Of a DNA stretch of 64,000 nt, positions 2,151 through 55,767 are shown piece by piece. The notes under the pieces are model-generated. The model was not told the DNA's origin and made no database searches. It worked only from the letters and a program-made list of their open reading frames with translations. The stretch lies in the IMG/VR virus record IMGVR_UViG_3300045988_159115; one strand, written 5' to 3'. The translations under genes and the position numbers were made by a program. The stretch's first letter is position 1; the number at the start of each line of letters is the position of its first letter. Source of the DNA: a virus.

Positions 2151-3501
2151 TAAGCGTCTCTATGAAGAGTATACTGATATGGTTCAAAGACTGTATAAGA
2201 AAGACTTCAATACAAGCGGACCGTTATCAGCATTGAAAATTTGCAGGTATGTGACTTTTCAGATCACGAATGCTTGCAATCTTCGGTGTTCTTATTGCTA
2301 TGAGCATAATAAGAACTGTGGATCTATGAGTCTTGATACAGCCAAGAAAGTAGTTGACTATATTCTTAATCTGTATGAGGAAAACACATCTGACTTTATC
2401 TCCAAACAAACAAAGGGCGTTGTCCTTGATTTTATCGGCGGAGAGCCTCTTCTGGAAGCTGAACTGATTGAGCATATTTGTGACTATTGGTTCGAGCAGT
2501 GCTATAAGAGGGACATTCCTCTCGGCCCGTTTACAAGAATCTCATTTGCTACAAATGGTAAGGCTTGGTTCGAGCCTGCATCTATGCATCTATTTGAAAA
2601 GTACCATGATATCATGTCGGTCACGGTATCTATTGATGGCGTTCAAGAACTTCACGATATGTACCGTGTTGACAGCAATGGTGTTGGAAGTTTTGAAATG
2701 GCTTGGCGAGCTTTTCAAGATGCAAAAAACCGATACGGCTGGCTTAATTCCAAGATGACATTTGTTCCTGGATCAATCAAATATTTATACTCCAGTGTGA
2801 AAATGATGATTGATGAAGGATGCAATTATATTCACGGTAATTGCGCATATGAGCCCATGTATACAAATGAAGATGGGAAAAACTTGTATGATGAACTTAA
2901 GAAAGTCTCTAATTATATCATAGATGAGCATCCGGATGTATACTTTGCGATGCTTAATCCGGATGAATACGGTGAAGCAGTCAATTTAGAGCATGATGAC
3001 AGCAACTACTGTGGTGGCACAGGAAACATGCTATCATTTGCTCCGGACGGTAAAGCATATCCATGCATTCGATACGCTCCCATTTCTATCGGAAATGAGA
3101 AAGCATCTAAAGTATGCTTTGGCGATATCAATAATGGTGGACTGTACGCAACTGAGGAGCAGCGCGAAATTAAGCGTGAGTTGGATGCTATCACCCTGAC
3201 ATCACAGTCTACGGACGAATGCATCAATTGCCCTGTATCCAAAGGATGTGGATGGTGCTCTGGATATAATTACGAAAAATATGGTACCGCAAATAAGAGA
3301 TATACGGGAATTTGCAAAGCGCACAAAGGCAACGTCCTTGCTGTGTACTATTATGTGAATACTCGATATCTTAAACTTGGCGATACCGAACCGAAGAAGA
3401 TTAAGCTGCCTTATGACGAGGTAGTAGAAATTCTCGGTAAAGAAGAAGCTGATAATCTTTTCGCTCTTGAAAAGGAAGCTTTTTCTCACTACGAAATGTA
3501 A
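2137..3501 (+). CDS. radical SAM enzyme with C-terminal SPASM-type domain (anSME / peptide-maturase-like)
   Basis: CNLRCSYC (CxxxCxxC) near the N-terminus. The C-terminal Cys clusters CGGTGNMLSFAPDGKAYPC and CINCPVSKGCGWC...C are typical of SPASM auxiliary Fe-S domains. ATG 2137 follows a GAGGAGA SD; the track ORF begins at TTG 2104. Confidence 0.85.
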   Translation: MKKHNKRLYEEYTDMVQRLYKKDFNTSGPLSALKICRYVTFQITNACNLRCSYCYEHNKNCGSMSLDTAKKVVDYILNLYEENTSDFISKQTKGVVLDFIGGEPLLEAELIEHICDYWFEQCYKRDIPLGPFTRISFATNGKAWFEPASMHLFEKYHDIMSVTVSIDGVQELHDMYRVDSNGVGSFEMAWRAFQDAKNRYGWLNSKMTFVPGSIKYLYSSVKMMIDEGCNYIHGNCAYEPMYTNEDGKNLYDELKKVSNYIIDEHPDVYFAMLNPDEYGEAVNLEHDDSNYCGGTGNMLSFAPDGKAYPCIRYAPISIGNEKASKVCFGDINNGGLYATEEQREIKRELDAITLTSQSTDECINCPVSKGCGWCSGYNYEKYGTANKRYTGICKAHKGNVLAVYYYVNTRYLKLGDTEPKKIKLPYDEVVEILGKEEADNLFALEKEAFSHYEM

Positions 3502-9491: not shown

Positions 9492-9509
9492 GTATGCTTA
9501 AATTCAAAT

Positions 9510-9566
9510 ACTTCTATATATTCTAAACAAAGTAAATTACTTACTTTGTTTAGAATATATAGAAGT
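9510..9566. repeat. 26-bp perfect inverted repeat (5-nt spacer)
   Basis: ACTTCTATATATTCTAAACAAAGTAA-attac-TTACTTTGTTTAGAATATATAGAAGT in an intergenic region. Confidence 0.9.
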
Positions 9567-10589: not shown

Positions 10590-10673
10590 TGCCGCCAACG
10601 GGACTTGAACCCGTACGCTGTTTCCAGCAAAGGAGCTTAAGGCCCTCGTGCCTGCCAATTACACCACAGCGGC
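10590..10673 (-). tRNA. tRNA-Leu(UAA), class II with long variable arm
   Basis: Reverse complement: GCCGCTG-TG-GTGT..GCAC-G-AGGGC-CTTAAGC-TCCTT-TGCTGGAAACAGCG-T-ACGGG-TTCAAGT-CCCGT-TGGCGGC-A. The T-arm and acceptor pair. The anticodon loop is CT-TAA-GC with one C:T mismatch at 31:39. Confidence 0.75.
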
Positions 10674-23468: not shown

Positions 23469-23663
23469 AATATGATTTCTCCTTCCAAAAAATAGATTAA
23501 TTTTCTGTGACCGAGAACCTTAGATTCTATATTCCTGGATACGTTTAAGATAATGGGCATAAAATATCAAAGCATTGCTGAAATGATATGTTATACCTTC
23601 GTGAGTAGTAGTCTGGAATCTGCTTCTCACGATAGCGTCAAAATAAAATCTGGAGGTTTTACA

Positions 23664-25937
23664 ATGGCAGAAAATGTAAAGTATTCCAATAAGGAAATGC
23701 TGCTTAAGGCCAACGAAGAGTTGCAAGGCTCGAATAGTCTTATCGGCATGACGATGCTGGGTATGCCCCAGTACAACTCCTCCATGCGATCTATTATGTT
23801 TACTTCGCATGAACGCCAGGTCGTGAACTTGCTGAACCCGGATTTTCCGGCAGTATTTACCAATGGCGAAAATGTTGTCGGTCGTTATTCGACTGGCTAT
23901 AAGCAGGCAAAAGGGAACTACGAGGTCGTAGATAAGGTGGTTAAGTATGAAGACATCATCGACCACCCGACAACGTATACCCTTTTCGTCTACGATAAAG
24001 AGAAAAAGTATTATGAGGCGTGGAGTCGTTGCGATTCTGAATCTTTGACCGAAGTCTTCGGTTATGAGTACAATAACGACTACATGGATAGCCTCGAAGT
24101 TGGAGATGAAGTCCCTAAAGGAACCGTAATTAAGAAATCTCGTTCGTATGATGATTCCATGAACTATGGGTACGGTATCAACGTGCCCATCATGTACACT
24201 ACGGAATCCTACACGTCTGAAGATGCTTGCGTTATTTCCCAAAGTCTTCACGACCGGCTTCAGTCCATCGAGATCAATACGGTCTCTATTGGTGTCAACG
24301 ACAATGACTTCCTTCTGAACCTTTATGGCAAAGGAAAGAAGTATAAGCCTTTCCCGGATATCGGTGAGTTCTCTACTGGCGAAGTCGCTGCAAAGCGTAC
24401 TCTTTCGAAAGAGCAGCTTCTCAGTGAGTTCAAGGATGACTCTCTGACTCATTCTGGAGAAAGTGATGTTTCTTACTATAAGAAAGGTCAGGTCGTTGAT
24501 ATCACCGTATACTGCAATAATCCCGATATCGAAGATACTCCGTTTACTCATCAGATTCTCAAATATCTGAAGAGCCAGCGGAAGTACTATCAAGGAATTA
24601 AAGAAGCATGCGAAATGGTTTTTGATTCTGGAGAGAAATACTCGAAGGAAATCAATTATCTCTATAAGCGTGCTATCGAGTTCCTTGATGAAGATAAGCG
24701 TTGGAAAGATCAGGATAGTCTGTTCTCCAACGTGAAAATCGAGATTACCGTCAAGGGTGTTGTGAGAGCAGATATCGGTCAGAAGATTACTGGCCGTTAC
24801 GGTAACAAATCTGTTATCTCTGCTATCCGTCCGGACGATGAAATGCCGTTCTATTACGACGATAATGGCAACAAGGTTACCATTGATCTGCTGTTCAACG
24901 TGCTGGCTATCATCAACCGCACCACAGCATTCCCCATTTTCGAAATCACCATGAACTTCATCTGCAATAAGGTGAGAGCTCAGATGAAGATGAGAAAGAC
25001 TCGGAAAGAGAGGGAAGAACTTCTCTTTGGTATTATTGACGACTTTAACCACAAGCAGCATGACGAAATGAAAGCTGTTTATGACAAGCTGTCCAACAAG
25101 GAGAAGGATGCATATATCCAGCAAGTTATGGACGACCACATCTATATTCATCAGAAGCCGATGTGGGAAGATGAGCCTATCTTCTATCGTCTACTGAAGA
25201 TCTATGAGAAGTACGATTTCTTAACTCCGTACGATATGTACATCAACAAGTTTGGCCGTACTATCAAGATGCTCCATCCCATGTATGCTGGTGAGATGTA
25301 TATTCTGAAGCTGAAGCAGACTTCCCGTAAAGGTTTCTCTGTCCGTAGCACTGGCTCTATCAACACAAAAGGTCTTCCTGAAAGAAGTTACCGCAATAAG
25401 AACTTCACAGAGCTTCGTTCTTCTACTCCGATTCGCTTCGGCGAGTTTGAGACGTTGAACTTCTCTATCGGCATGGATCCGGAAGATATTCAGATTTTCA
25501 ATCTGATGTATCGTGCATCCGCAAAGGGTCGTCGTGATCTTGCAAATGGCCTGATTACTGGTAAAGACCAGTTTAAGGTGAGCAAGACTTACACTTCTCG
25601 TGTGAACGAGATATTTGCCGTATACCTGAAGAGTCTCGGTATTGAAGTTGACTTCATCGACGATGGCGACTCTATCCGTGAATATGATGATCGTCATATC
25701 AAGATCGAAACCATTGACGATCAGGATTACATGGGTACCGAGTATGATCTGATGCTGGTAAAGCGCAAGAAAGCTGTCGAGAAAGAAGTTCTTGCAAAAG
25801 AAGGCATCATTGATGCCGACAAGTTTAAGCAAATCGTTATGGAAGAGCTTAAGACAAACAGCTATGTGGTTGGCCCGGATAAGTCGGAGTATGATACGAC
25901 TCCTGCTTTCCAGGACGATACCGACCACATGAATTAA
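23664..25937 (+). CDS. multisubunit RNA polymerase beta subunit, C-terminal half
   Basis: [21 protein letters not shown] aligns to [27 protein letters not shown] to [24 protein letters not shown] to GDKMAGRHGNKGVIS, and [21 protein letters not shown]...[11 protein letters not shown] to [20 protein letters not shown]...QRFGEMEVWAL. ATG lies 7 nt after GGAGG. Confidence 0.85.
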   Translation: [757 protein letters not shown]

Positions 25938-28709: not shown

Positions 28710-28781
28710 TCATTCTGACAGACAGGTAATTCGCATATTCAAGACCTATGCGAAAGAAACCCAATATGGAGGTTGCGCAAT

Positions 28782-30194
28782 ATGGCTAAAAATCACAAGC
28801 AACATACAGTTCGCGTGAGACGCATCAACTGGGATGTTGAGTACCTTAAAGACATCATTACGAATAATGGCTTCACCATTACGGAGCCCGCAGTCGTCAA
28901 GCTTGACGATACCAAGCAGAAGAGCCTCTATGGTGCACGGTCGATTCTGTACGGCACAAACTACGAAGATGAGAACGCGTTCATTGAGCGCTATCGTTGT
29001 CAGTGTGGCGAGTTCAAGGGTAAGCTGTTTGAGGGCGAGACTTGCCCTCTCTGTGGAACCAAGGTTGAATATCAGGGAACCAATATTGAGTTCACCGGTT
29101 GGATTAGTCTTGGTGGTAACTACATCCTCAATCCTTTCTATTATCAGAAGCTCGCTTCTTGTATGAAGAAAGGCATGCTGGATTCCATCATCAACGATAA
29201 GTATCAGGTTGATGTAAACGGTAATCGTACCCGTTTCATTGATCCCGATGAACAGGCTGCAACTGGCGGATTTGCTGGCATTGGCCTCGTGGAATTTCGG
29301 GAGCATTTTGAGGAGATTATCGAGTTCGCAAAGATGAAGAAGAAAGGAAAAGCGGATGAGCTGGATCGGCTTCTTGCTGAAAAGAGTTCGGTCTTTACTT
29401 CTCATATTCCTATCTATTCTACGCTTCTTCGTCCTCAGAGTGCAACTACCGACACCTATTACTTCAACACGATCGACAAGCACGTGAATCCTCTGTTTAC
29501 TTTGTCTGAAAAGTTAAAAGGAAGCACAGAGATTGATCGTGCTCTCATCCTGTCTCGCATTCAGTATCGTGTCAATAAGCTTTGGGCAACGAACTTCGAA
29601 TTTATCACCGGTAAGGATGGATGGATTCGTGGTCAGATTCTTGGCGGCGCGTTGAACTATACTTCTCGTAACGTCATTATTCCGAACCCGGAACTTCGTG
29701 ACTCTGAAGTGGATCTTTCCTACAACACCTTCCTTGAGCTGTTTAAGTTTAAGATCATCCACTATCTGATGGTGATGGATGATATCTCTCTGACACAGGC
29801 TTGGCAGGAATATCAGGATGCATATAAGTTCAATCCGCACATCTATGAGGTGATGAACTTCATCATTGCAAAAGAGCAGCCGAGGATCCTTATCAACCGT
29901 AACCCGACCTTGAACTACTACAGCATCTTGCTGATGAAAGTTCGTAAGGTAAAGCAGGACGTGACTGATTTTACACTCTCGGTTCCGCTGTCTGTCCTTC
30001 CTGGTTTGAATGCAGACTTCGATGGCGATATTTTGAATATCATCGGCATCATGAATAAGGAACTTGAGCATGCGTTCCGGAAGTTCGACCCTGTTACTCG
30101 TATGATTATCTCTCGTGATAGCGGATTGCTGAATCCGTACTTCATGATTGAGAAGTCCCAGATGATTGATTTCTATAACTTCTGCACGTTATAA
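28782..30194 (+). CDS. multisubunit RNA polymerase beta' subunit, N-terminal fragment (set 1)
   Basis: Zn-ribbon CQCGEFKGKLFEGETCPLCG. Exact catalytic loop NADFDGD (PGLNADFDGDILNI). Ends ~60 aa after the loop, as in split phage beta' genes. Confidence 0.85.
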   Translation: MAKNHKQHTVRVRRINWDVEYLKDIITNNGFTITEPAVVKLDDTKQKSLYGARSILYGTNYEDENAFIERYRCQCGEFKGKLFEGETCPLCGTKVEYQGTNIEFTGWISLGGNYILNPFYYQKLASCMKKGMLDSIINDKYQVDVNGNRTRFIDPDEQAATGGFAGIGLVEFREHFEEIIEFAKMKKKGKADELDRLLAEKSSVFTSHIPIYSTLLRPQSATTDTYYFNTIDKHVNPLFTLSEKLKGSTEIDRALILSRIQYRVNKLWATNFEFITGKDGWIRGQILGGALNYTSRNVIIPNPELRDSEVDLSYNTFLELFKFKIIHYLMVMDDISLTQAWQEYQDAYKFNPHIYEVMNFIIAKEQPRILINRNPTLNYYSILLMKVRKVKQDVTDFTLSVPLSVLPGLNADFDGDILNIIGIMNKELEHAFRKFDPVTRMIISRDSGLLNPYFMIEKSQMIDFYNFCTL

Positions 30195-39473: not shown

Positions 39474-42400
39474 TTAAGATTCGTAAATCTCTTTCAGTTT
39501 GCGTTTCAGTTCAACGATCACCTTATTGCCAAGAACGGTTATCAGAATTGAAGGAACCTGGCGTTTCAAGATTGAAGACGGTGGGATAAGGGAAGACACC
39601 TCTTCTTCAGGTCTGAATTCACTATAAGGCTCGTAGCCTTCAGGTATAATTTCACCAACGATACCCTTCAAAGCGGTGAAGTAGGCCACCTTGTCTCCTA
39701 CACCAAGGATATCACCGTGTTCGATATAGAATTCGATCAGTACGCTATCATCAACTTTCTGTCCTTTGATGACGCCGTAGATGTTCGGCTCGATCTTACC
39801 GGTGGTCTCATTGACAAGCAGGCCACACTTCACGATAGAAGAGTCCTCTTCAGCGTACTTGTCGAGGAATCCCTTTTTCTCTTTCACCGTCTTGTAGTAG
39901 TCGTTAACGACTTTACGAAGACTCGGACTCATCTCATCCAGTTCGACAGCTGAATAGATCTTGATCCCAACGATTGTACCGGCATACTTAGATCGAACGA
40001 CATTCTTACTTTCATTCTCCATGAGCTCTTTATTCTCATCAGAAAGAGTAGCAAGCAATTTATTCAGATCACTATCTTCGAATGATGTATCGTAGGAAAG
40101 CAGAGGATCGCCAATATGGACATGATCACCCACCTTACGCATATCATACACATTTGAGTTCTTACCAACAACTACTGATTTGCAGAAAGTCATATTGGCT
40201 TGTGCATCTCCAGCAAGTTTACGGGTAATAACGGTACAGTCGTTGTATGTGTTATAAGAAGAGATAATAGCAACTTTTTCCAGAACACCGACATTCATAC
40301 GAAGGCCATTGAGTTTATCTTCCTTGAAGAAGTCTTTGTGCCAAGCAAGGGCAGCATCTTTTTTGAAAGAATCACCCACTTTATACTTGGTCACAAGTTC
40401 ATTGGAAAGATAGAAACCACCGCCGCCGTTCTTTACGATATTCGGTGCAAGATTGATTGCTTGATGTTTACCGCTCTTATATTCAACCATGAGGATCTTG
40501 CTCTTCGGATCATAGTCAATGACTTTGCCATCCTCGGCAGCATTGACAACGAAATCCGTAGAAAGATCGAAGCGGATTGCTTCATCAGATCCATTTGAAA
40601 TAAGAGCAGGAGATGCATTCTGCACAGGAATAACATGCTTTGACTGCTTCACAGCCATTGCAATACGAACAGAGTCATCTCGAGTATTACCAAGAGGATA
40701 AAGAAGTTCAGCAGGAGAGAACAGGTTCACATCCTTCAGATCTTCTCGTTCGTTTTCTTTGATATCAACGTATCCACGTGCAGATGTGATATTCGGCTCC
40801 ATTGTAAGAGTACGATTAATACCACAGTTACCATCAGGAGAAGTGCTCATACCGATAACACCGATCATAGACGGGTCATAAGAACGCTTTTCCTCGGAAT
40901 ATGCACGATCAACGTTGACACCACGATATCCCTTTGCAGTGATATTACGATCTTTCTCAAGTTCAACGACAGGATTCAGTGTAGAATAATCTTCTACTGT
41001 CTGGAGACCCATCAATTCCTTGATAACGCAGTTTCTAGGAAGTGTCAGTTTCTTTTTACCGCCGCTATTCTTATAATCGAGATAAGCATTGGAAATCTGA
41101 TAATACAGAATAGCGGGAATGACTTCAGAAGAACGGACACGAGCAATACGCTGGCTAGACTCAAAGGTATAGCTATCGTCAACGAGTAAGCTATTTGCAT
41201 AAATGCAAAGCTCGATGAGATCAGTAGGAAGACCAATGTCACGAAGAATCTCTTCTGTGATAGGATCAATCATGAACTCATAATAGTTACCGATAGCGGA
41301 CATGATAGCCACTTTACCGTAGACTTTCTTGAAATAATCCACGTATGCTTCCGCACTATTATACTCATTGAGATCATGAGACTCTGTATCCAGAACCTTC
41401 ATGCCATTCATCAAGAGAGCTGTTGCCATATCCGCGTCATACAGCATATAGCAATCCTTAAACCGAATGACACCCTGACTTGCTTTTACCTGCTTCGGAT
41501 AAGACTTACTGAATTCATACTTCAGATTCATCTTCTTGAAGACTGATGTAATTCCTTCCCAATAGAGCATGTAGACAATTAGAGGCATTGTCTGACTCAT
41601 CATCGTCGCAGTTGAATACATGACCTTCTTGGTATTACGAGTCTTCAGATACTCATTTCGAATATCAGGAGGAAGCTGATCGACAAGAATATCGCAGATG
41701 GATTCACCATCACTTGCGGACTGAGTTTCGGAGTTAATCCAAATCTCTTTATTCTTATCTCTCCAACCAATAAAGATCATACTGCCATTATTGGTTTTAG
41801 GAGCTTCCAGATCATGATCTTCCACATACTTCTGTGCGTCTTCCTGACTAAAGAAAATCGTACAGGTAGGAGTTTCGAATTTTCGAATAACCTTGGAGAA
41901 CTCATCGTATTCCAAAGTAGTCAAATACTGCTTATTGGTGACATATACGTTACCAACTGTGAAATGCTTCATAGCATTCTCATTAGACGTAATGAGTTTC
42001 ATGAGACGCTCAACAGCAGAAATAGATTTTGCACCGGTACGACGGACGAAAATCTTATTGTAGTTGGAAACGATCTGTACTGTATCAGGGCCAGTCTTTA
42101 CGACAGGATATAAGAAATTCTGCTTATTGATCAGCTTCTTATTACCGCCGAGATACAGGAATTTATCGTCAAGGAACTTCGGAATATCAACCGTAACAAC
42201 ATGACGCTGATGCTTCTCATCTTCCAGAGTAACTTTCATCGTCATCTTGTAGTTTAACTCATCCGACGTATCTTCACTCTTGATATCAATGACATAGAAA
42301 GGCATACCCTTCTTATTCAGACAAGTAAAGTCGTTCATCAAATCAGCAGGCATAACATTTTCGATGTAATCCTTATTGATATTTGAGAACTTCACTGTCT

Positions 42401-43832
42401 TCATATTATCATTGATCGTATGAAGAGATCCAGAAATGTCTTTTTTCGGGATAGGACGCTTTGCAGCATTCATCGCTTTCACATCTTGGAAAGTCATATT
42501 CTCAAGAGTAATGGATTCCTGCTTCTTACGCATTTGAGCGTCACGTGCTGTACTAATAGGTTTTGACGGAACCGTGGTAGCTTGCATTACCTTATACATG
42601 CTTTCCACAAGTTCCTTATCATTATCAAGATCCATCTCAGACTTTGCCTTGATATAATCAACGGCAGCTTTACTTTCAGTAGGATCTTTTCCATTTGATA
42701 CAGCTTCGATCTCTTTTGTAGTCTCTTCGACTTTCTGATTGATCTTCTTATTGATCGTATCCTTAGCAATCTCAACTTCTGCTTTTCGAGCAATATCATT
42801 TCCGATATAAGAAGTCTTAGACCCTTGAGTATTCGTGATAGGCTTCGCTACCACAACTTTCTTTGAAGAAGTATTCTTCACCGTCACCGGGTTCTTTTTT
42901 GCCGCGGGCTCGTTCGATACTTTAATCGTCGAAGCTGCTTCAGGAGGCAACTCTTTTTGAACAACCGGCGTGGTATTATTACCAGTAAGATTATATCTAG
43001 TAGAAAGAGTAGCCTTAATAACATCTCTTTGCTCTTCATCTTTGACAGCCTTCGTATCTGATACTTCATCCCAGCGAGTAGACTTCTTAAATACACGATT
43101 CAGAGATGTTCTGAACTGTGATGCATTAACTTTCGCCATTTTACTAGGATTTACACGTAAGATATAAGAATCTGAATAAAAATAGAAATCAATATCCAGT
43201 TTCTTAAATGAAGGAACCTCATTCAGAATAGAATAATAAAATTTGAAAAGAATATTATTGATATTCTGAGTGAAATTCGTTCCAAAGTTATCAAAGAGGT
43301 CAACATCAACGAGGACAAACTTTTGCGGATACTGGGAGCACTGTTCTCCATTGATGATGCTGTAAAGGTAAGCCCAGAATAAGCTTACTTTTTTCTTTGG
43401 CTGCTGATTAATGGTACACTGGTCAAATACTTTCAGATACATTGAGAGATCAAAAAAAGTATTATAGTCGGGAGTCTTATTCAGAAGCATAGGAGGATGC
43501 TCATGAAGAGAACTACTATGAATTCTATCATAAAGATCCTTTTTTCCAGCTGCATCTCTGACATTGTAAGTTCGCCCACCAATTGTACCATGATATCGGA
43601 TGTTGTGGTACAGATAACGGTATTTACCATCTGCTGAGCAATTCTTCGTATTGGTTGCTACATGGATTACTTCAGCAGGCGTGGTAGCCATAATGAATGC
43701 AAGATTTCCATGCCCGGGTTGAAGTTTCTTCATCTTTCCAGGATGCTCTGGATCAGGAATGACAACTTCTTTCGGCAGATATGCTTTTCGAGCAACTGCA
43801 TTCATATATGGGAGAGACGTAATATATACCAT
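39474..43832 (-). CDS. multisubunit RNA polymerase beta-like subunit with ~520-aa N-terminal extension (set 2 or virion-type?)
   Basis: [19 protein letters not shown] aligns to [44 protein letters not shown] to [41 protein letters not shown] to [18 protein letters not shown], and [10 protein letters not shown] to [27 protein letters not shown] stands in place of GDKMAGRHGNKGVIS. Ends at ...[16 protein letters not shown]. Confidence 0.8.
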   Translation of the reverse strand: [1452 protein letters not shown]

Positions 43833-44722: not shown

Positions 44723-45400
44723 TCAAAGAGATTTCTGGTCAATCTCGACGATTACGTTTTTGTTAATGTAATCAACGATGTTCTGAATCTCAGCTGCATT
44801 CATCGAATTATGATTTCCACGAACGTAGCACATCACTTCATTATTGATGTAGTTATAATGGGTTTTCTTCATATCAATGATTCTCTGGTTGCTACTTCCA
44901 CAGAACTTCAAATGAAAGTCTTTCTTATCTTCTTCATACTGACCATCAACCAAATGATCTACGAAATACAGCATGCTCATAATCTGAGCTTCTTTATCAT
45001 CCGTAGTATATTTGGATCTCTGATTCAGAGATTTAAACTCCAGAAGTGCTTTAAGAATGATATCAGTAAGAGAATACCCAGTATAAAGCCAGATATCCAT
45101 TTTCTTATAGATAAGATCGGCATCTTCTTTAATATGAAGAACGAGATTTGTCAGATCGTAGATATTACACCATTCCAGAGGTTCTCCACCCAGAATGGAG
45201 AATCTATGGATATAAGGTCTATCAACGAGGGAACGGATTTTTGTTTCCGTTTCTGTGGTGTATTCTTTACCACCATTGAAATCCCATGTGACTTGATTAA
45301 AGCAATTCTTACAATGGAAGTGGCATCCTTGTGTGAAGAGGGAAACTCCAACGCCGTAGCCATTGCTAACATCCATTTCTCGAATAGATGCATATCTCAT
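44723..45400 (-). CDS. nrdG: anaerobic ribonucleoside-triphosphate reductase activating protein (radical SAM)
   Basis: MRYASIREMDVSNGYGVGVSLFTQGCHFHCKNCFN is the canonical NrdG N-terminus with a CxxxCxxC cluster. It starts 4 nt after the nrdD exon-2 stop. Confidence 0.9.
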   Translation of the reverse strand: MRYASIREMDVSNGYGVGVSLFTQGCHFHCKNCFNQVTWDFNGGKEYTTETETKIRSLVDRPYIHRFSILGGEPLEWCNIYDLTNLVLHIKEDADLIYKKMDIWLYTGYSLTDIILKALLEFKSLNQRSKYTTDDKEAQIMSMLYFVDHLVDGQYEEDKKDFHLKFCGSSNQRIIDMKKTHYNYINNEVMCYVRGNHNSMNAAEIQNIVDYINKNVIVEIDQKSL

Positions 45401-45404
45401 AAAA

Positions 45405-45514
45405 TCACTCTTTCTCCTCTACTTCTTCACCATCAGCAGCAATATCTGTCAGATGCACATAACGGTTTCTAATCTCATCGGTACGACCCTGAGACCAGAA
45501 GTGAGTTCCAATAT
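45405..45514 (-). CDS. nrdD: anaerobic ribonucleotide reductase NrdD, exon 2
   Basis: Encodes (Y)IGTHFWSQGRTDEIRNRYVHLTDIAADGEEVEEKE*, the conserved NrdD C-terminal tail. It is in frame with exon 1 after removal of 311 nt. Confidence 0.8.
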
Positions 45515-45825
45515 CCTTTATACCCTCGGTTTCCCGATATTTAAGTACGGGAGTAGACTATACCATACTTGCTTAGTGACTTCACTAAGTAGCGCCCGTA
45601 TTATAGTCGTTGAACGTCCTTCCCTAAGTGGAATAAATCCATACGAGTATTTCTACTCGCAGAAGTTTCGATGCGATGATTATCCAATCTCTAAGTCTTT
45701 TTACCATACCTGATTCTGTTAAAATCAGCCATATAGTTGTCGCCATATCTATACTTGGTAACCTAGAGCTCTAAGGAACTTCCCGCAGTTTAACAGGTTT
45801 AACGTGGACTATATTGAATAATTCA
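45515..45825 (-). mobile_element. group I intron (ORF-less) in nrdD
   Basis: The 5' splice site follows U (exon GUGGAU pairs with IGS GUCCAC at 45804-45809, with a U:G wobble). The last nt is G. Core-like elements are CUGCGGGAAG (45779-45788), GUUCAACGACUAUAA (45601-45615) and GGUAUAGUCUAC (45553-45564), with GACUAUA/UAUAGUC able to form P7 and an 8-bp hairpin between them. Confidence 0.8.
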
Positions 45826-48800
45826 ATCCACAGGTGCGTCGAGCGACGCTCATCTTATGCTGATCACGATTGCCGCAATTCGGGCATTCCCAAACCAACT
45901 TGCCACCATCATCAACTACTTTGATTTCTCCATCGTAGCCGCAGTTCATGCAATAGTCAGACTTGATATTGAGCTCTGCATACATGATATTCTCATAGAT
46001 ACACTGCATAACTTCAAGAACTGCAGGAATATTATGAGTCAAATCAGAGCATTCAATATAACTGATAGCACCGCCCGGAGAAAGCTTCTGGAATTCAGCT
46101 TCCTGAATGAGCTTATCGAACGGATTAATCTTTTCAAAGACGGCAGTGTGATAGCTATTAGTGATATAATTACGATCTTTGCCATCAAGCTTAATAAAAA
46201 CGTCATCCCCAAAACGTTTCTTAAGGCAGCGAGCGAACTTGTAAGTGGTATTCTCAATCGGGGTACCATACAGAGAATAATCAATATGCTCTGCTGTCTT
46301 CCACTGATTGCACTTATCATTCAGAGCCTGCATGACCTTAAGGCCAAATTCTCTACCAACGCCTTTATCCATATGAGAATGGCCAGTCATATACTTGACA
46401 CACTCATACAGACCCGCATAGCCAAGCGAGATAGTAGAGTATCCATTAAACATGATATCGCCGATCTTAGCATCCATAGGAAGTCGTGCGAATGCACCAT
46501 GACGCCAAAGAATAGGAGCAACATTAACAGATGTATCCTTGATACGATCAATACGTGCACGCAATGCTCGATGGCAAAGCTCAGTACGCTCTTCAAAGAG
46601 CTGCCAGAATTTATCGTAGTCTCCACCAGAAGAGAAAGCCAGATCAGGGAGAGAAATGGTTACGACGCCACAATTAAATCTTCCATAATACTTTCCCTTG
46701 CCGGTTTTCGGATCTTTATATGGAGTAAGGAAACTGCGGCAGTTATGGCTGTAAATACCAGAAATAGTGAAATGCTCACTTCCAGTTGTTACGTCATAAG
46801 TATCTTCTTTCCGTTCAAGCATATGAGATTCTACGATATGGCACTGAAGTTTATTATTTAAACTAGCAAGATTCATTTCGTGCTTGATATAGTGATTCCG
46901 CTTTTTCTCAGACACGAGATTTTTGACAATTTCATCTGTAGCAATAAAGCAAACTTGATAACGAATGGTATCATACCGGCCAGTGCCTTTATAATGATTT
47001 TGATACATCGTAGCAGGGATGCCCAGCGACTGCGCCAGCATCATTTGCTGAATAGCAAGCTCTTTATTGGTCGATCCAATTTGGACAGCAGTGAATTTCC
47101 CATTCGAATTATTAAGGTATCCATCAGCATCAATCATGCCGCAAAGGAAACCAATGCGAGCAGATCTATTCGATGTAAAGATATCGGACGGAATATGACG
47201 GTTTAACTTAATAATTCCGCCGAATTCTTTAATCATTATATCAGCAAATTTAGGAATGGCAATTCCATCATCGGTAGCCACAGAAACGATATCTTTGTAA
47301 ATTCCTTTTCTTTCACGATTCTGATTTACTACTTTCGTGGTAATTCCATAGAATCGCTTCAGCCGCTCTTGGAGAGCTCCGATAATATCATCTTCACCCT
47401 CATTTGCTAACGAAACCGCCAGCTTTTTAATGTAAGACGAATCGCAAATCAGAATGCCAAGAAGCCAAGCCAACTCAGGATCATAATCATTATTTTCATC
47501 ACTGATATGAGATTTGATATCAACCTGAATCATGTCGTCTTCTTTTAAATCTTTTGCAAAAACGACTCCACGGTTTTCCGTTTCAAACGGATGATCCGGT
47601 GTGACATCGAGGCATCTTCCGTTATTGAACTTGATTCTCATAACGTCGCACTTCGAATTTCGAATGATTCGATAACACAGAGTCCAACCGTTCACATGAT
47701 CATAGATCATCACGTCTTTCAAATCCATGTACCAATCATTTTCACGACCGGGCTGAAGCTTTACTTCAAAGAAGGGCATGAGGCGCCACCACATTCGGCC
47801 AATTCCTTCAACGTAAGTATTCTTCATGAATTTATAGGTTACTACTTCATCACCGACCGCACATCCCATGCATGGATACACGTCGCCCTTCAGCTGTTTC
47901 ATTACTTTTGCTGAAATATAGTCAGGAACCATGCGTTTGGCCGTGCATTGTGCAGCTAAAACAGTGGTACTCCAGTACTTTGTGCCAGGTTTAATATTGT
48001 CTTCATCGAGGACATAGATGAGCTTCGGGAATGCAGGAGTAATCCATGCACCCTGCTCATTCTTCATGCCCTGAATACGCTGGCGGAGGAATTCTTCGAT
48101 GATCATGACAAGTTCGTCACGGTATTCATCAGTTTCATCAATATACATGAAGACGGTGAGGAACGGAGCCTGTCCATTGGTTGTAGACATAGAGTTCACC
48201 TGATAGATAAAAGTCTGGCAACCATCTTCGACTTCTTTACGAGTATCAAGCTCAGCAAACTTAGCTGCTTTTCGTTCATCAAAGCCCCAGCTAAGATATT
48301 TCTTCAGATAGATATTATAGGAGTCTCTCACGAACGGTGCGAGATGTGTCAGAGTGATAGATATGCCACCGTACTGGGAAGAAGTGACTGCCGTAATGAT
48401 CTGAGTAGAGATCGTGGCGGCAGTAATAAAACGATGCGGTTTGTCGATTTTGGTACCATTGATAACAGTACCATTCTGAAGCATATCATCAAGATTGCAG
48501 AGTGAGCAGTTGGTAAGAACACTCTGTGCATAATAATCCGCATCATGGAAATGAATAATTCCGGCGTCATGTGCATCCACAACTTCCTTGGGAAGCAGAA
48601 TACGCCGGGTAACATCCTTTGAAGTAATACCAGCGATATAATCACGCTGGACAGAAACGATTTCGGGGTCCTTATTGGAATTCTCTTCGTTCACTTCTTC
48701 ATTCGTGTGATTGAGAAGTTCCATAATTGCATTATCCGTGGTATTGTGAGAATCACGGACAAGAGATCTCTTAAAACGATACTCCGTATAGGCCTTCGCA

Positions 48801-49030
48801 ACATCCTTACGGTCAGTACCCATGAGATCATAAATGACGAGATCCTGAATCTCCTCTACAGACTTATCTTCAGGAATAGCAGCGATCTCATCTGCGATAT
48901 TATTCGCAATTTTGGTGGAAGAATCGGATAGTGAACCATCGACCTCAATAAATGCCCGCTGAATTGCGGATACAATTTTTGATCTGTCGAACTCCACTAC
49001 CCGGTTATCACGTTTCTTCACAGATTTCAT
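45826..49030 (-). CDS. nrdD: anaerobic ribonucleotide reductase NrdD, exon 1 (includes intein)
   Basis: N-terminal ATP-cone (RDNRVVEFDRSKIVSAIQRAF). Class III RNR body. Zn-ribbon CMNCGYDG...CPNCG. The glycyl-radical motif ARRTCG lies at the exon end. Confidence 0.9.
46742..47863 (-). mobile_element. intein (374 aa) with LAGLIDADG homing endonuclease, inside NrdD
   Basis: The host motif is split as ...VYPCMG / CRSFLTPY. The intein starts CAVGDEVV and ends GIYSHN, followed by Cys+1. LAGLIDADG blocks are LAWLLGILICDSSY and FLCGMIDADGYL. Confidence 0.85.
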
Positions 49031-54219: not shown

Positions 54220-55767
54220 TTATGATGCAGATTTCGGAGCATCCTTTGTCAATACATAGAATGTCTGAATAGCTTCAAGGTCAATGACACGGCAATTCGA
54301 ACCGTTCGGATTCAAAGCAAAGTTCTTGCTATTGATAACCTTCTCACACTCAGCATTGGCTTCTTGAGTCCAGAAAATCTTCGAAGTAATCTGGTCACCA
54401 TCGTAGTCGCCGTCAAGGCCAGCCAGATATGCATCTGAGAACTTGGTTGTATCAATAAAGTTGTTTGCAACCTCTTCTCTTGGCATATTCAGATCAATGA
54501 CAGGATACCATTTATACACGGTATCGTTTACCTTCATAGGAACGGTATGAAGTGTGGAAGAAACATTGATTTTCGCCACAAACATACCAAAACTATTCAG
54601 AACCGGATAGCGTGTAATCATACAATGCTTATCCTTTGTCACTTCAACGCATGCCATATAAAGAAGATCACACCATGTCATATAACGATGGACAAGGGAT
54701 TTATCAGCAGGCTGATTTACCATGATGCCGTCGAAATACAGAGGAAGATCCTTTCCTTCTACAGTAGGAACTGTAATCAAGTCAAATCGACTGGAAGGAT
54801 CTTTTGCAAACTGATTCAGGCGCTTCTTGATATATTCATCATTGAACGTAGCTTCCGGATCTTTCAGAGTATAATTCGAGTTTACACCAGTCTTATTATT
54901 CTGAACTTCCAAAATTTCACGCTCAATGAAGTTTCTCACCCATGCAACAACGAAAGGATACGCTTCAACGATGACCTGGGACATCGGAAGAGCGGCATGT
55001 CTAAAATCGACAATGTTGTCTTTCGGATCATCACAGTTGTAAAGAGGAGCAGAGATAACGGTACGGACACAATAGTCAACGTTTTTACCAAGCAGGTATT
55101 TACGAAGCATACCGTTTTTCTTATCCAGACTATTCTTAAAATAGTCATAGACTTCCACAAGAGTATTCTGAATAGATGCATTCGTTGAATGGAAGGAGAA
55201 ATCAAACATATCAGCATCTTGTAGAAGCGCACTCATACGAATCAGTCGAGCATAAAGTGTATTCAGCTCAGATGATTCACCGCCACCGCCTTTATTGGAC
55301 TTAATGTCTCGATAAAAAGCAGGGATGACGATTGCTTTTGTCGTAAAGATTTCATTCTTCTTCGTTTTACCAATAAGGTCACAACGCTCTGAAGACATGC
55401 CACCGTTGCCTTCCCATTTTAACTTACTCCAATTATTATAGATAAACTCGATTCCGGTATTACCATTCGGATCTTTTACGAGCTTTCCATCTTTAATGGA
55501 GAAAGTCTGACTACCATCAACGATCTGATCAATGTTACGAAATACTCGTTTCAAGATCTTGTAGATATGAGGATGGAAGAAATGCCCGTGAAGGTCAATG
55601 TATGCAAATGTCTCTTTACGACTCTTAACAGAGACGCCAAAAATTTCATTTGAAATCAATCCATTTGGATTCGGAATACCGCCACGCTCAAACAAAATAG
55701 GAGACGTGACTGGTTGTAAATTATTGATCTTCACAAATTCATCGACGTCAAATAGATCAATTTTCAT
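54220..55767 (-). CDS. multisubunit RNA polymerase beta' subunit, N-terminal fragment (set 2)
   Basis: The N-terminus ...ISNEIFGV...FAYIDLHGHFFHPHIY aligns to beta' GHIELAAPVAHIW. The catalytic loop is LDGDYDGDQITSK (D-x-D-x-D retained). Ends ~65 aa after the loop. Confidence 0.8.
   Translation of the reverse strand: MKIDLFDVDEFVKINNLQPVTSPILFERGGIPNPNGLISNEIFGVSVKSRKETFAYIDLHGHFFHPHIYKILKRVFRNIDQIVDGSQTFSIKDGKLVKDPNGNTGIEFIYNNWSKLKWEGNGGMSSERCDLIGKTKKNEIFTTKAIVIPAFYRDIKSNKGGGGESSELNTLYARLIRMSALLQDADMFDFSFHSTNASIQNTLVEVYDYFKNSLDKKNGMLRKYLLGKNVDYCVRTVISAPLYNCDDPKDNIVDFRHAALPMSQVIVEAYPFVVAWVRNFIEREILEVQNNKTGVNSNYTLKDPEATFNDEYIKKRLNQFAKDPSSRFDLITVPTVEGKDLPLYFDGIMVNQPADKSLVHRYMTWCDLLYMACVEVTKDKHCMITRYPVLNSFGMFVAKINVSSTLHTVPMKVNDTVYKWYPVIDLNMPREEVANNFIDTTKFSDAYLAGLDGDYDGDQITSKIFWTQEANAECEKVINSKNFALNPNGSNCRVIDLEAIQTFYVLTKDAPKSAS

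Follow-up and report, generated by a model that had tools for sequence, protein, structure and literature searches.

As a known rule, selfish elements insert into the codons that are most conserved. The phage gene nrdD, encoding the class III RNR large subunit, is interrupted by a group I intron in T4 (nrdD, also sunY), with nrdG lying downstream. The T4 intron has 1033 nt, is located at codons ~171-181 in a gene of 605, a short way upstream of NGQTPF and ~400 codons from Gly580, carries a GIY-YIG ORF (I-TevII) and is annotated as group IA, presumably of subgroup IA2. The hallmarks of IA2 introns, as in T4 td, nrdB and nrdD and in the IStron type, are an extended P9.0/P9.1/P9.2 and, in the interval from P7 to P3', the extra hairpins P7.1 and P7.2 (PMC4227781).

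Some RNR genes are interrupted by an intron and an intein together. This has been described for nrdE of the Bacillus prophage SPbeta (Derbyshire & Belfort 1998, 'Lightning strikes twice'; Lazarevic et al. 1998; as cited in PMC3653736), and also for nrdE of Brochothrix phage A9 and nrdD of Lactococcus phage 949, the latter with a 'non-coding intron' and intein remnants for which that source gives no site (PMC3653736). In the 'Jug' gut jumbo phages, nrdD is fragmented by group I introns and inteins, and splicing is supported by metatranscriptome reads (PMC12880540). Direct sequence homology relates the intron described here to introns of the AR9/PBS1 RNA polymerase beta gene, of the phiCD211 tape-measure gene, and of Twort, A511, SPO1-like and Enterococcus phages.

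In this work, we analysed a stretch of viral DNA of 64,000 nucleotides (the window) whose nrdD gene is interrupted by a 311-nt insert and by an intein. We hold it to be very probable that positions 45515-45825 are a group I intron that lost its homing-endonuclease gene and sits 1 nt past the radical glycine codon. As in SPbeta, A9 and 949, an RNR gene is interrupted here at the RNA level and at the protein level, but SPbeta and A9 have class Ib nrdE as host gene whereas the window has class III nrdD. The locus can be likened to the Jug phages, by description only, in its gut jumbo-phage setting, in nrdD as a recurrent target and in introns that are small and mostly ORF-less; however, the Jug phages are predicted to infect Bacteroides or Phocaeicola, and the named-host relatives of the window's phage infect Enterocloster (Clostridia). 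Our literature searches yielded no account of an intron located at the codon of the radical glycine, the >100 curated RNR introns reported by RNRdb being outside their scope, and this site is apparently unreported so far.

Results

The nrdD gene, its two inserts and the predicted product

The gene and its neighbour occupy the following positions:

44723-45400, minus strand: nrdG, activating radical-SAM enzyme (Pfam Fer4_12 125 bits, Radical_SAM 27.7 bits)
45405-45514, minus strand: nrdD exon 2, (U)AU AUU GGA..., encoding (Y)IGTHFWSQGRTDEIRNRYVHLTDIAADGEEVEEKE, with its stop codon at 45407-45405
45515-45825, minus strand: very probable group I intron, 311 nt, without an endonuclease ORF (empty sites, RF00028, covariation)
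45826-49030, minus strand: nrdD exon 1, with ATP-cone, NRDD and Gly_radical domains, holding the intein (ORF list, Pfam)
45829-45827, minus strand: radical glycine codon GGA, followed at 45826 by U, the first base of the Tyr codon (codon coordinates)
46742-47863, minus strand: intein of 374 aa (aa 390-763) carrying a LAGLIDADG homing-endonuclease domain (Pfam, motifs, alignment)

In the ORF list, nrdD is a frame of 1073 codons at 45809-49030 on the minus strand which ends in MSVARRTCGLNYSI and a stop codon, that is, ARRTCG-LNYSI, and nrdG starts at 45400, 409 nt downstream of this end. Translation of the minus strand from 45514 to 45405 gives IGTHFWSQGRTDEIRNRYVHLTDIAADGEEVEEKE followed by a stop codon, and nrdG begins 4 nt downstream of that codon. 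A preliminary description of the locus had already remarked on this truncated end with nrdG ~400 nt further on, had recognized the missing tail in the 45514-45405 segment, and had proposed that joining 45826 to 45514 restores RRTCG-Y-IGTHFW; all of this was reproduced. When all junctions around the proposed coordinates were tried, 45826 to 45514 was the one restoring the motif in frame, and it yields an NrdD precursor of 1104 aa. The predicted ligated exons read ...UGU GGA UAU AUU GGA..., the nucleotide junction being ACCUGUGGAU joined to AUAUUGGAAC (also written ACCTGTGGAT joined to ATATTGGAACTC), and the junction-spanning NrdD peptide would be ...RRTCGYIGTHFW..., in place of a naive truncated NrdD that would end ...RRTCGLNYSI.

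The spliced product is recognized by Pfam as NRDD (556 bits), Gly_radical (66 bits) and ATP-cone (64 bits). Its C-terminus, aligned with NrdD homologs as had been suggested as a check, runs gap-free through the glycyl-radical region of the solved NrdD structures. The glycine of RRTCG falls on T4 NrdD position 580, counted along the T4 alignment; the crystals carry Ala there, which we take to be the G580A radical-site mutant.

The two pieces of nrdD could be conceived as a split gene, in which a truncated NrdD would associate with a C-terminal peptide translated on its own, no RNA splicing being needed, and a functional split phage RNR has indeed been described, the mobE-split nrdA of Aeromonas phage Aeh1 (PMC3653736). 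However, an in-frame scan found no ATG, GTG or TTG in the interval that runs from the last in-frame stop to the Ile codon in exon 2, the sole in-frame start in exon 2 being a GTG 18 codons in, beyond the conserved motif. Moreover, the break falls inside a codon, that for Tyr of RRTCG-Y-IG, and two separate peptides would leave unexplained the covarying ribozyme fold of 311 nt that is described below. We regard the split-gene reading as close to refuted and its probability as negligible.

The intein, which the preliminary description had also pointed out, is a co-resident element in nrdD, separate from the intron. It was confirmed by Pfam matches above the cut-offs for LAGLIDADG_3 (47.4 bits) and Hom_end (31.7 bits) and one just under the cut-off of 35.8 for Intein_splicing (33.6 bits), and by the motifs Cys1 (CAVGDE...), TPDH at aa 477, LLGILICDSSY, LCGMIDADGY and a final ...YSHN followed by C. 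The intein-free NrdD is colinear with T4 NrdD 227-360, and the intein is inserted immediately before the Cys which aligns with T4 NrdD Cys290, presumably the thiyl-radical cysteine. Protein splicing, predicted from these features, would convert the precursor into an enzyme of 730 aa, in which YPCMGCRSFL would bridge the former intein site. As the intein stands before the Cys290 equivalent and the intron after the Gly580 codon, both radical residues are flanked by a selfish element.

Alleles with and without the insert

The most informative relative is L274, a syntenic 259-kb viral contig whose flanking genes are ~94.6% identical to those of the window. It lacks exactly 45515-45825 and also lacks the intein. 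In BLAST of the window against this contig the alignment jumps from 45828 to 45514 and from 47874 to 46741, and the uninterrupted NrdD of 730 aa corresponds to the window product minus the 311-nt intron and the 374-aa intein. The peptides encoded by exon 2 are identical in the two at 35 of 36 positions. A second empty site is found in MT835469, with TGTGGAT directly followed by ATATCGG (RRTCGYIGSNFW), and Enterocloster phage CB457P1 (L001) and MT835556 (L002) carry an insert at the same nucleotide as the window. Because the empty-site alleles agree, nucleotide for nucleotide, with the sequence predicted for the ligated exons, the boundaries of the intron are fixed. The distribution is patchy even among close relatives: beside the empty L274, the intron is present in three Enterocloster phages, CB457P1, CB473P1 and CB473P3, and missing from CB457P2, CB473P2 and PMBT24.

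In a tblastn search with the spliced C-terminus as query, 1596 of 1795 phage records were contiguous through RRTCGY, and CB457P1, CB473P1, CB473P3 and MT835556 broke exactly after the Gly. Therefore homologs do not naturally end at this residue, and the possibility raised at the outset, that they simply stop at RRTCG-x5, does not hold.

Further introns at the same site were sought by scanning viral, metagenome and genome collections for an 18-mer motif of the 3' junction. Most of the 239 metagenome and genome matches to this motif were chance occurrences in unrelated genes, and 29 loci were retained, representing 23 distinct introns of 239-797 nt at the same nrdD codon (22 besides that of the window). 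The exon 2 motif is conserved in all 23 alleles. Among the genes of the window's phage there are also some for subunits of a multisubunit RNA polymerase of the AR9/phiKZ type.

Assignment to group I

An Rfam scan of the whole window at the gathering threshold reported no intron. With a permissive scan, the full RF00028 (Intron_gpI) model matched the insert at 30.9 bits against a gathering score of 50, with E = 5e-6 on a 601-nt region and 5.4e-4 over all 64 kb of the window, in which no other intron was matched. Thus, the Rfam check advised in the preliminary description gave a match that is significant locally and below the gathering score. The R and S elements were aligned to the model (UCAACGACUAUAA and GGUAUAGUCUA), in agreement with the P/R/S-like core elements reported earlier, and the first 46 model positions were misaligned onto exon 1, since the intron has no P2 and the 5' end of the model is forced into the exon. 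Seven other members of the family were scanned, and none had an Rfam match at E <= 0.01.

Sequence comparison by BLAST gives a further link to group I introns. Nucleotides 15-150 of the intron are 76% identical to the AR9 RNA polymerase beta intron, which itself scores 69.2 bits on RF00028, and over nucleotides ~255-311 it shares 85-93% identity with the 3' ends of many introns from Twort, A511, SPO1-like and Enterococcus phages; there is also a match to a phiCD211 feature annotated Intron_gpI. The P3-P4-P5 architecture is common to the window intron and those of the AR9/phiCD211 type, and associated HNH endonuclease genes are another point of resemblance. Unlike the AR9/Herelleviridae-type introns, however, the window intron lies at the radical-glycine codon of nrdD, has no ORF and scores below the gathering threshold. 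No match to T4 was among the phage hits. A minimum-free-energy fold of the region was set aside, its z-score being only modest (-2.6) and the global fold non-canonical.

As the gathering-level scan had reported nothing, we also considered whether the insert might be a group II intron, an IStron, a MITE-like repeat or an assembly artefact, for which nothing specific speaks. RF00028 is the only Rfam family matching the region, which contains no transposase, no reverse transcriptase and no ORF longer than 40 aa, and neither group II domain V/VI features nor terminal inverted repeats with a target-site duplication were seen. Moreover, 28 independent contigs, drawn from different samples, carry this insert at the identical nucleotide, and its helices are of the group I type, with the pseudoknot of P3 and P7, the U.G pair and also the terminal G. 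Insertions of these other kinds are therefore extremely improbable.

Anatomy of the intron

The predicted elements of the group I intron are listed below, intron nucleotide n being window coordinate 45826-n:

45804-45831, minus strand: P1, exon GUGGAU (45831-45826) with guide GUCCAC (nt 17-22, 45809-45804) (covariation, RNAalifold)
45793-45797, minus strand: 5' strand of P3, CCUGU (nt 29-33), partner at 45595-45599 (changes on both sides in all 5 pairs)
45672-45787, minus strand: P4-P5 domain (coordinates and covariation); P4, UGCGGG (39-44) with UC (147-148) and CGCA (151-154), then J4/5; P5, UCC (49-51) with GGA (141-143); extended P5 arm of ~80 nt (58-137) with CUCUAG/CU(U)AGAG, UACC/GGUA and two hairpins
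45615-45670, minus strand: P6 domain; P6, CG/CG (156-157 with 210-211); P6a, CUUCU/GGAAG (161-165 with 203-207); distal hairpins CGAGUA-GAAA-UACUCG (167-182) and UGGA/UCCA (185-197)
45602-45608, minus strand: 5' strand of P7, GACUAUA (218-224), after the conserved J6/7 UUCAAC (Rfam consensus UCAaAGACUAAA)
45595-45599, minus strand: 3' strand of P3, ACGGG (227-231), 2 nt (AU) from the 5' strand of P7
45572-45589, minus strand: P8 hairpin of 7 bp, CUUAGUG-AAGU-CACUAAG (237-254)
45556-45562, minus strand: 3' strand of P7, UAUAGUC (264-270) (Rfam consensus AUAUAGUC; covariation)
45515-45551, minus strand: P9 region and 3' end; CCC (275-277) with GGG (301-303); GAAA-capped P9a, UCGG-GAAA-CCGA (289-300); conserved tail GGGUAUAAAGG, ending in the terminal omega-G at 45515 (nt 311)

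At the 5' splice site U(-1) forms a wobble pair with G17, and the last nucleotide of the intron is G at 45515, as expected from the earlier proposal of a splice site after the wobble-pairing U of GUGGAU/GUCCAC. All 23 same-site introns end in ...AAGG; since the search motif required the terminal G, it is independent evidence only in the window, CB457P1 and MT835556. The predicted P1 is extended by pairing of U1-U6 with A11-A16. An in-frame stop codon, UAG at nt 15-17, overlaps the guide sequence, and in 23 of 23 variants the read-through frame meets a stop codon by nt 5-17, before the guide or at it. A possible P10 would join AUAUU of exon 2 to AAUAU of the intron (nt 11-15). L002 and L029 show covariation here (AUAUC/GAUAU), but several relatives have this pairing in weak form or not at all, and it is not claimed.

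P3 and P7 form a pseudoknot. The pairing of GACUAUA with UAUAGUC had been put forward as P7 around an 8-bp hairpin; covariation and the Rfam consensus agree with this P7, within which conservation across the family is limited to the inner 5 bp (GACUA/UAGUC), whereas the hairpin has 7 bp and corresponds to P8, because P3' (ACGGG) sits between it and the 5' strand of P7. The length of P8 is highly variable among relatives, and the hairpin is missing in the 275-nt variants (one of them at 2772-3046 of MT835556). The P5 arm is also found in the AR9 and phiCD211 introns. Only AU lies between the 5' strand of P7 and P3' in the window and in all 18 cores that were aligned, and with 2 nt separating them P7.1 and P7.2 are absent; P9 is a single short arm. 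The window intron thus lacks the IA2 hallmarks and does not share the insertion site of the T4 nrdD intron (codons ~171-181 vs the Gly580 equivalent). The analogy with T4 drawn in the preliminary description is valid for a group I intron in the same gene, but not for its site or intron type.

Covariation in the core

The core alignment was assembled from anchor-defined segments (147 nt, 18 distinct cores), and 42 pairs were counted in P1, P3, P4, P5, P6, P6a, P7 (as a pseudoknot), P9 and P9a. Standard pairs filled 97.5% of the cells vs 37-43% when the partners were slid by 1-3 columns, a control that is flattered by the choice of anchors with knowledge of the fold. Nearly half of the pairs (20/42) changed on both sides, and the covariation score was 0.447 against 0.19 in shuffled alignments, none of the 500 shuffles reaching the observed value. 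Compensatory changes were found in all 5 pairs of P3, in 4/4 of P9a (with CCC/GGG invariant), in 3/4 of P6a and in 3/7 of P7, whose outer 2 pairs break in 3-4 sequences. Two of the 4 pairs of P5 were also compensated, the fourth being U.U in the window, and L175 contributed one compensatory change among the 6 pairs of P4 (UGCU/AGCA) and one in P6 (CC/GG). The U.G wobble of the 5' splice site is present in 18 of 18 cores, and in P1 the synonymous exon variants GGA and GGG are matched by U or C in the internal guide sequence (10 AU vs 8 GC sequences).

RNAalifold, run without a supplied structure, recovered P1, P3, P4, P5 and P9. A plain MAFFT alignment of the full introns was replaced by the core alignment, as it misplaced the P4'-P6 segment of the window, where most relatives have a 20-nt hairpin instead of an AU bulge; in that alignment P5a covaries by eye (CUCUAG/CUUAGAG, CACAAC/GUUGUG, CUUUAAU/AUUAAAG). 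In the window copy none of the core helices is broken, and there is agreement with the consensus of the family at every invariant column. The predicted group I fold is supported by the compensatory changes in P1, P3-P7, P6a and P9a.

Endonucleases, mobility and selection on exon 2

The window copy encodes no homing endonuclease: the largest ORF inside the intron has 40 aa (ORF list), so that its initial characterization as ORF-less is correct. Some of its relatives carry an HNH or GIY-YIG ORF in P8. L017 has a 149-aa HNH_3 ORF in the P8 loop (44 bits), of which L006 and L136 retain a truncated remnant; L093 and L142 have a P8 of 409 nt with an ORF in the loop; and L029 has in P8 a 323-aa ORF of the GIY-YIG type, by motif. 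From these data we infer that the window intron is a non-autonomous descendant of a homing intron. The contig L080 is ~92% identical to the window overall and 98.7% in the intron, and identity decays from there, to 97.3, 95.3 and 80% upstream and to 96.4, 93.4 and 92.1% downstream. In the comparison with L274, the stretch from intein to intron is only 79% identical vs 92-95% outside. Both patterns fit an import of the intron together with flanking exon sequence.

Exon 2 is under clear purifying selection in the sister group of 275-nt introns, in which 8-14 of 26 codons differ, all synonymously and with 0 non-synonymous changes. In the sub-lineage of the window, L080 and L063, synonymous changes number 2-4 and non-synonymous ones 1-2, which is not enough to prove selection in this sub-lineage.

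These data bear on whether the insert might be a decayed intron that no longer splices, in which case nrdD would be a pseudogene or would give an inactive truncated NrdD, with a host class III reductase doing the work. The missing endonuclease ORF and P2, the Rfam score below threshold and the few exon 2 substitutions in the window sub-lineage are compatible with decay, and two selfish inserts could mark a dispensable gene. However, the window copy keeps every core helix and matches the invariant columns, and its exon 2 peptide differs from that of L274 at a single position out of 36. The reading frame, the spacing to nrdG and the splicing residues of the intein are intact as well, and in the sister 275-nt group exon 2 is clearly under purifying selection. 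It is thus quite unlikely, if a little less so than a split gene or another type of insertion, that the element has decayed, and the 311-nt group I intron would be excised from nrdD RNA.

A broader proposal, which we consider rather doubtful, is that the window intron belongs to a compact, unclassified lineage of gut jumbo-phage introns largely missed by RF00028, without P2 and P7.1/P7.2 and with 275-nt forms that lack P8 and have a strictly selected exon 2. This lineage would be passing from one diverged nrdD allele to another and also into a second nrdD site, GGNU/AUAUYGG (the slash marking the insertion point), and in one sub-lineage the exons would begin to diverge again only 8 nt away from the splice sites. 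If this were true, it would point to reverse splicing and not to endonuclease-driven homing with co-conversion.

Discussion

According to the data above, nrdD and nrdG would be transcribed as one RNA, and ribosomes entering the intron would stop at the UAG of nt 15-17, at the guide sequence, which may have a protective role. Based on covariation, the RNA is predicted to fold into P1 and a P3/P7 pseudoknot core with P4-P6, P8 and P9. By the standard group I pathway, exogenous guanosine would attack following U(-1), the U of the U.G pair; the freed exon 1 would then attack after the terminal G. Exon ligation would give the 1104-aa precursor, and removal of the 374-aa intein the 730-aa NrdD, a protein of the same length as that of L274. 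The lineage may move between phage nrdD alleles by means of the HNH or GIY-YIG endonucleases encoded in P8 of some members.

With its intron and its intein, this nrdD gene is one more clean example of the conserved-codon rule, for which L274, syntenic and without both inserts, provides a natural control. Our understanding of group I introns, inteins and class III reductases is unchanged by the finding: the intron is an ordinary example of a well-known phenomenon that is missed by automatic annotation. Its value is for annotation, since naive ORF calling gives an NrdD seemingly without everything past the radical glycine, as the preliminary description had anticipated; in GenBank records of cultured Enterocloster phages (e.g. 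CB457P1), nrdD is annotated as ending a few codons past the glycine. Rfam at its default threshold misses the intron too, and recognizing it restores a complete 730-aa enzyme.

Variants and distribution of the intron in nrdD

Shorter variants, 275 or 276 nt long, of the intron at the radical-glycine site of nrdD were found on eight contigs:

L002, 2772-3046: 275/276-nt variant at the radical-glycine site; also on L008, L014, L021, L024, L025, L121 and L122.

In these variants only 10 nt (AUCAUUAUUG) separate P3' from P7', and therefore they have no P8 hairpin. Despite the missing P8, splicing has very probably been retained, as judged from the exon sequences. In exon 2, 8-14 of the 26 codons are changed and none of the changes is non-synonymous; in exon 1, about 40 synonymous changes per 200 codons stand against 2-3 that are non-synonymous. 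The intron itself differs by only 0-3 nt from host to host, and the exons begin to diverge 8 nt from either splice site.

A copy of the window intron's lineage occupies a second site of nrdD on another contig, L029:

L029 (reverse complement), nt 1062-2261: second-site intron in nrdD.

This intron is preceded by ...ATITLG and followed by Y-IGIYECVKAL, the equivalent in the window being SLGYAGLYE, and its IGS is re-tuned to the new position (exon UUGGGU, IGS GCCCAA). The two targets are alike, GGGT|ATATCGG in L029 vs. GGAT|ATATTGG at the radical site, and both encode G-Y-I-G. The P8 of this copy holds a GIY-YIG-type ORF of 323 aa, and the radical-glycine site of the same nrdD is uninterrupted. 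A third, unrelated insert of about 284 nt lies close to the NGQ-APF motif of this gene.

The nrdD of the window is also interrupted by an intein:

46742-47863, minus strand: intein of 374 aa with a LAGLIDADG endonuclease domain.

The intein directly precedes the Cys aligned to Cys290 of T4 NrdD; it is found in the related L080 and missing from the syntenic, intron-less L274. Between intein and intron (window 45828-46741, L274 3643-4556), the window and L274 share only 79% identity in DNA and 86.9% in protein, and the DNA on either side is 92-95% identical. This comparison suggests that the nrdD segment between the two elements was replaced together with both of them.

Annotation of nrdD in cultured phages

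The following gene is annotated in the cultured Enterocloster phage CB457P1:

OP172753.1, 47986-50127: nrdD CDS in GenBank.

This CDS stops a few codons past the radical glycine. The record lists no intron there, and an intron of about 290 nt and the exon for IGTHYWNYGRTEEI... are left unannotated. CB473P1 and CB473P3 also carry the intron in nrdD.

Other features and phage type

Two further features were detected in the window:

10590-10673, minus strand: tRNA gene of 84 nt (42 bits), with an extra arm of 12 nt as in class II tRNAs.
9509-9566, plus strand: hairpin with sub-threshold matches to two microRNA families.

The hairpin scores 38.5 bits (E 3.7e-4), the gathering score being 90, and is probably no more than a strong stem-loop, for instance a terminator.

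Group I introns are also predicted in Bacillus phage AR9:

KU878088.1, 151328-154459: region of the RNA polymerase beta gene.

Three consecutive Rfam group I intron matches (69.2, 102.4 and 30.7 bits) lie within 1 kb of this gene. An HNH endonuclease gene adjoins them, and the CDS is annotated as a six-piece join.

Four ORFs of the window match the PHROGs "RNA polymerase beta subunit":

39474-43832, minus strand
54220-55767, minus strand
23553-25937, plus strand
28773-30194, plus strand

Phages that encode a multisubunit RNA polymerase of the AR9/phiKZ type themselves show this pattern, and the contigs on which same-site introns occur reach 140-260 kb. Therefore, the window probably derives from a gut jumbo phage.
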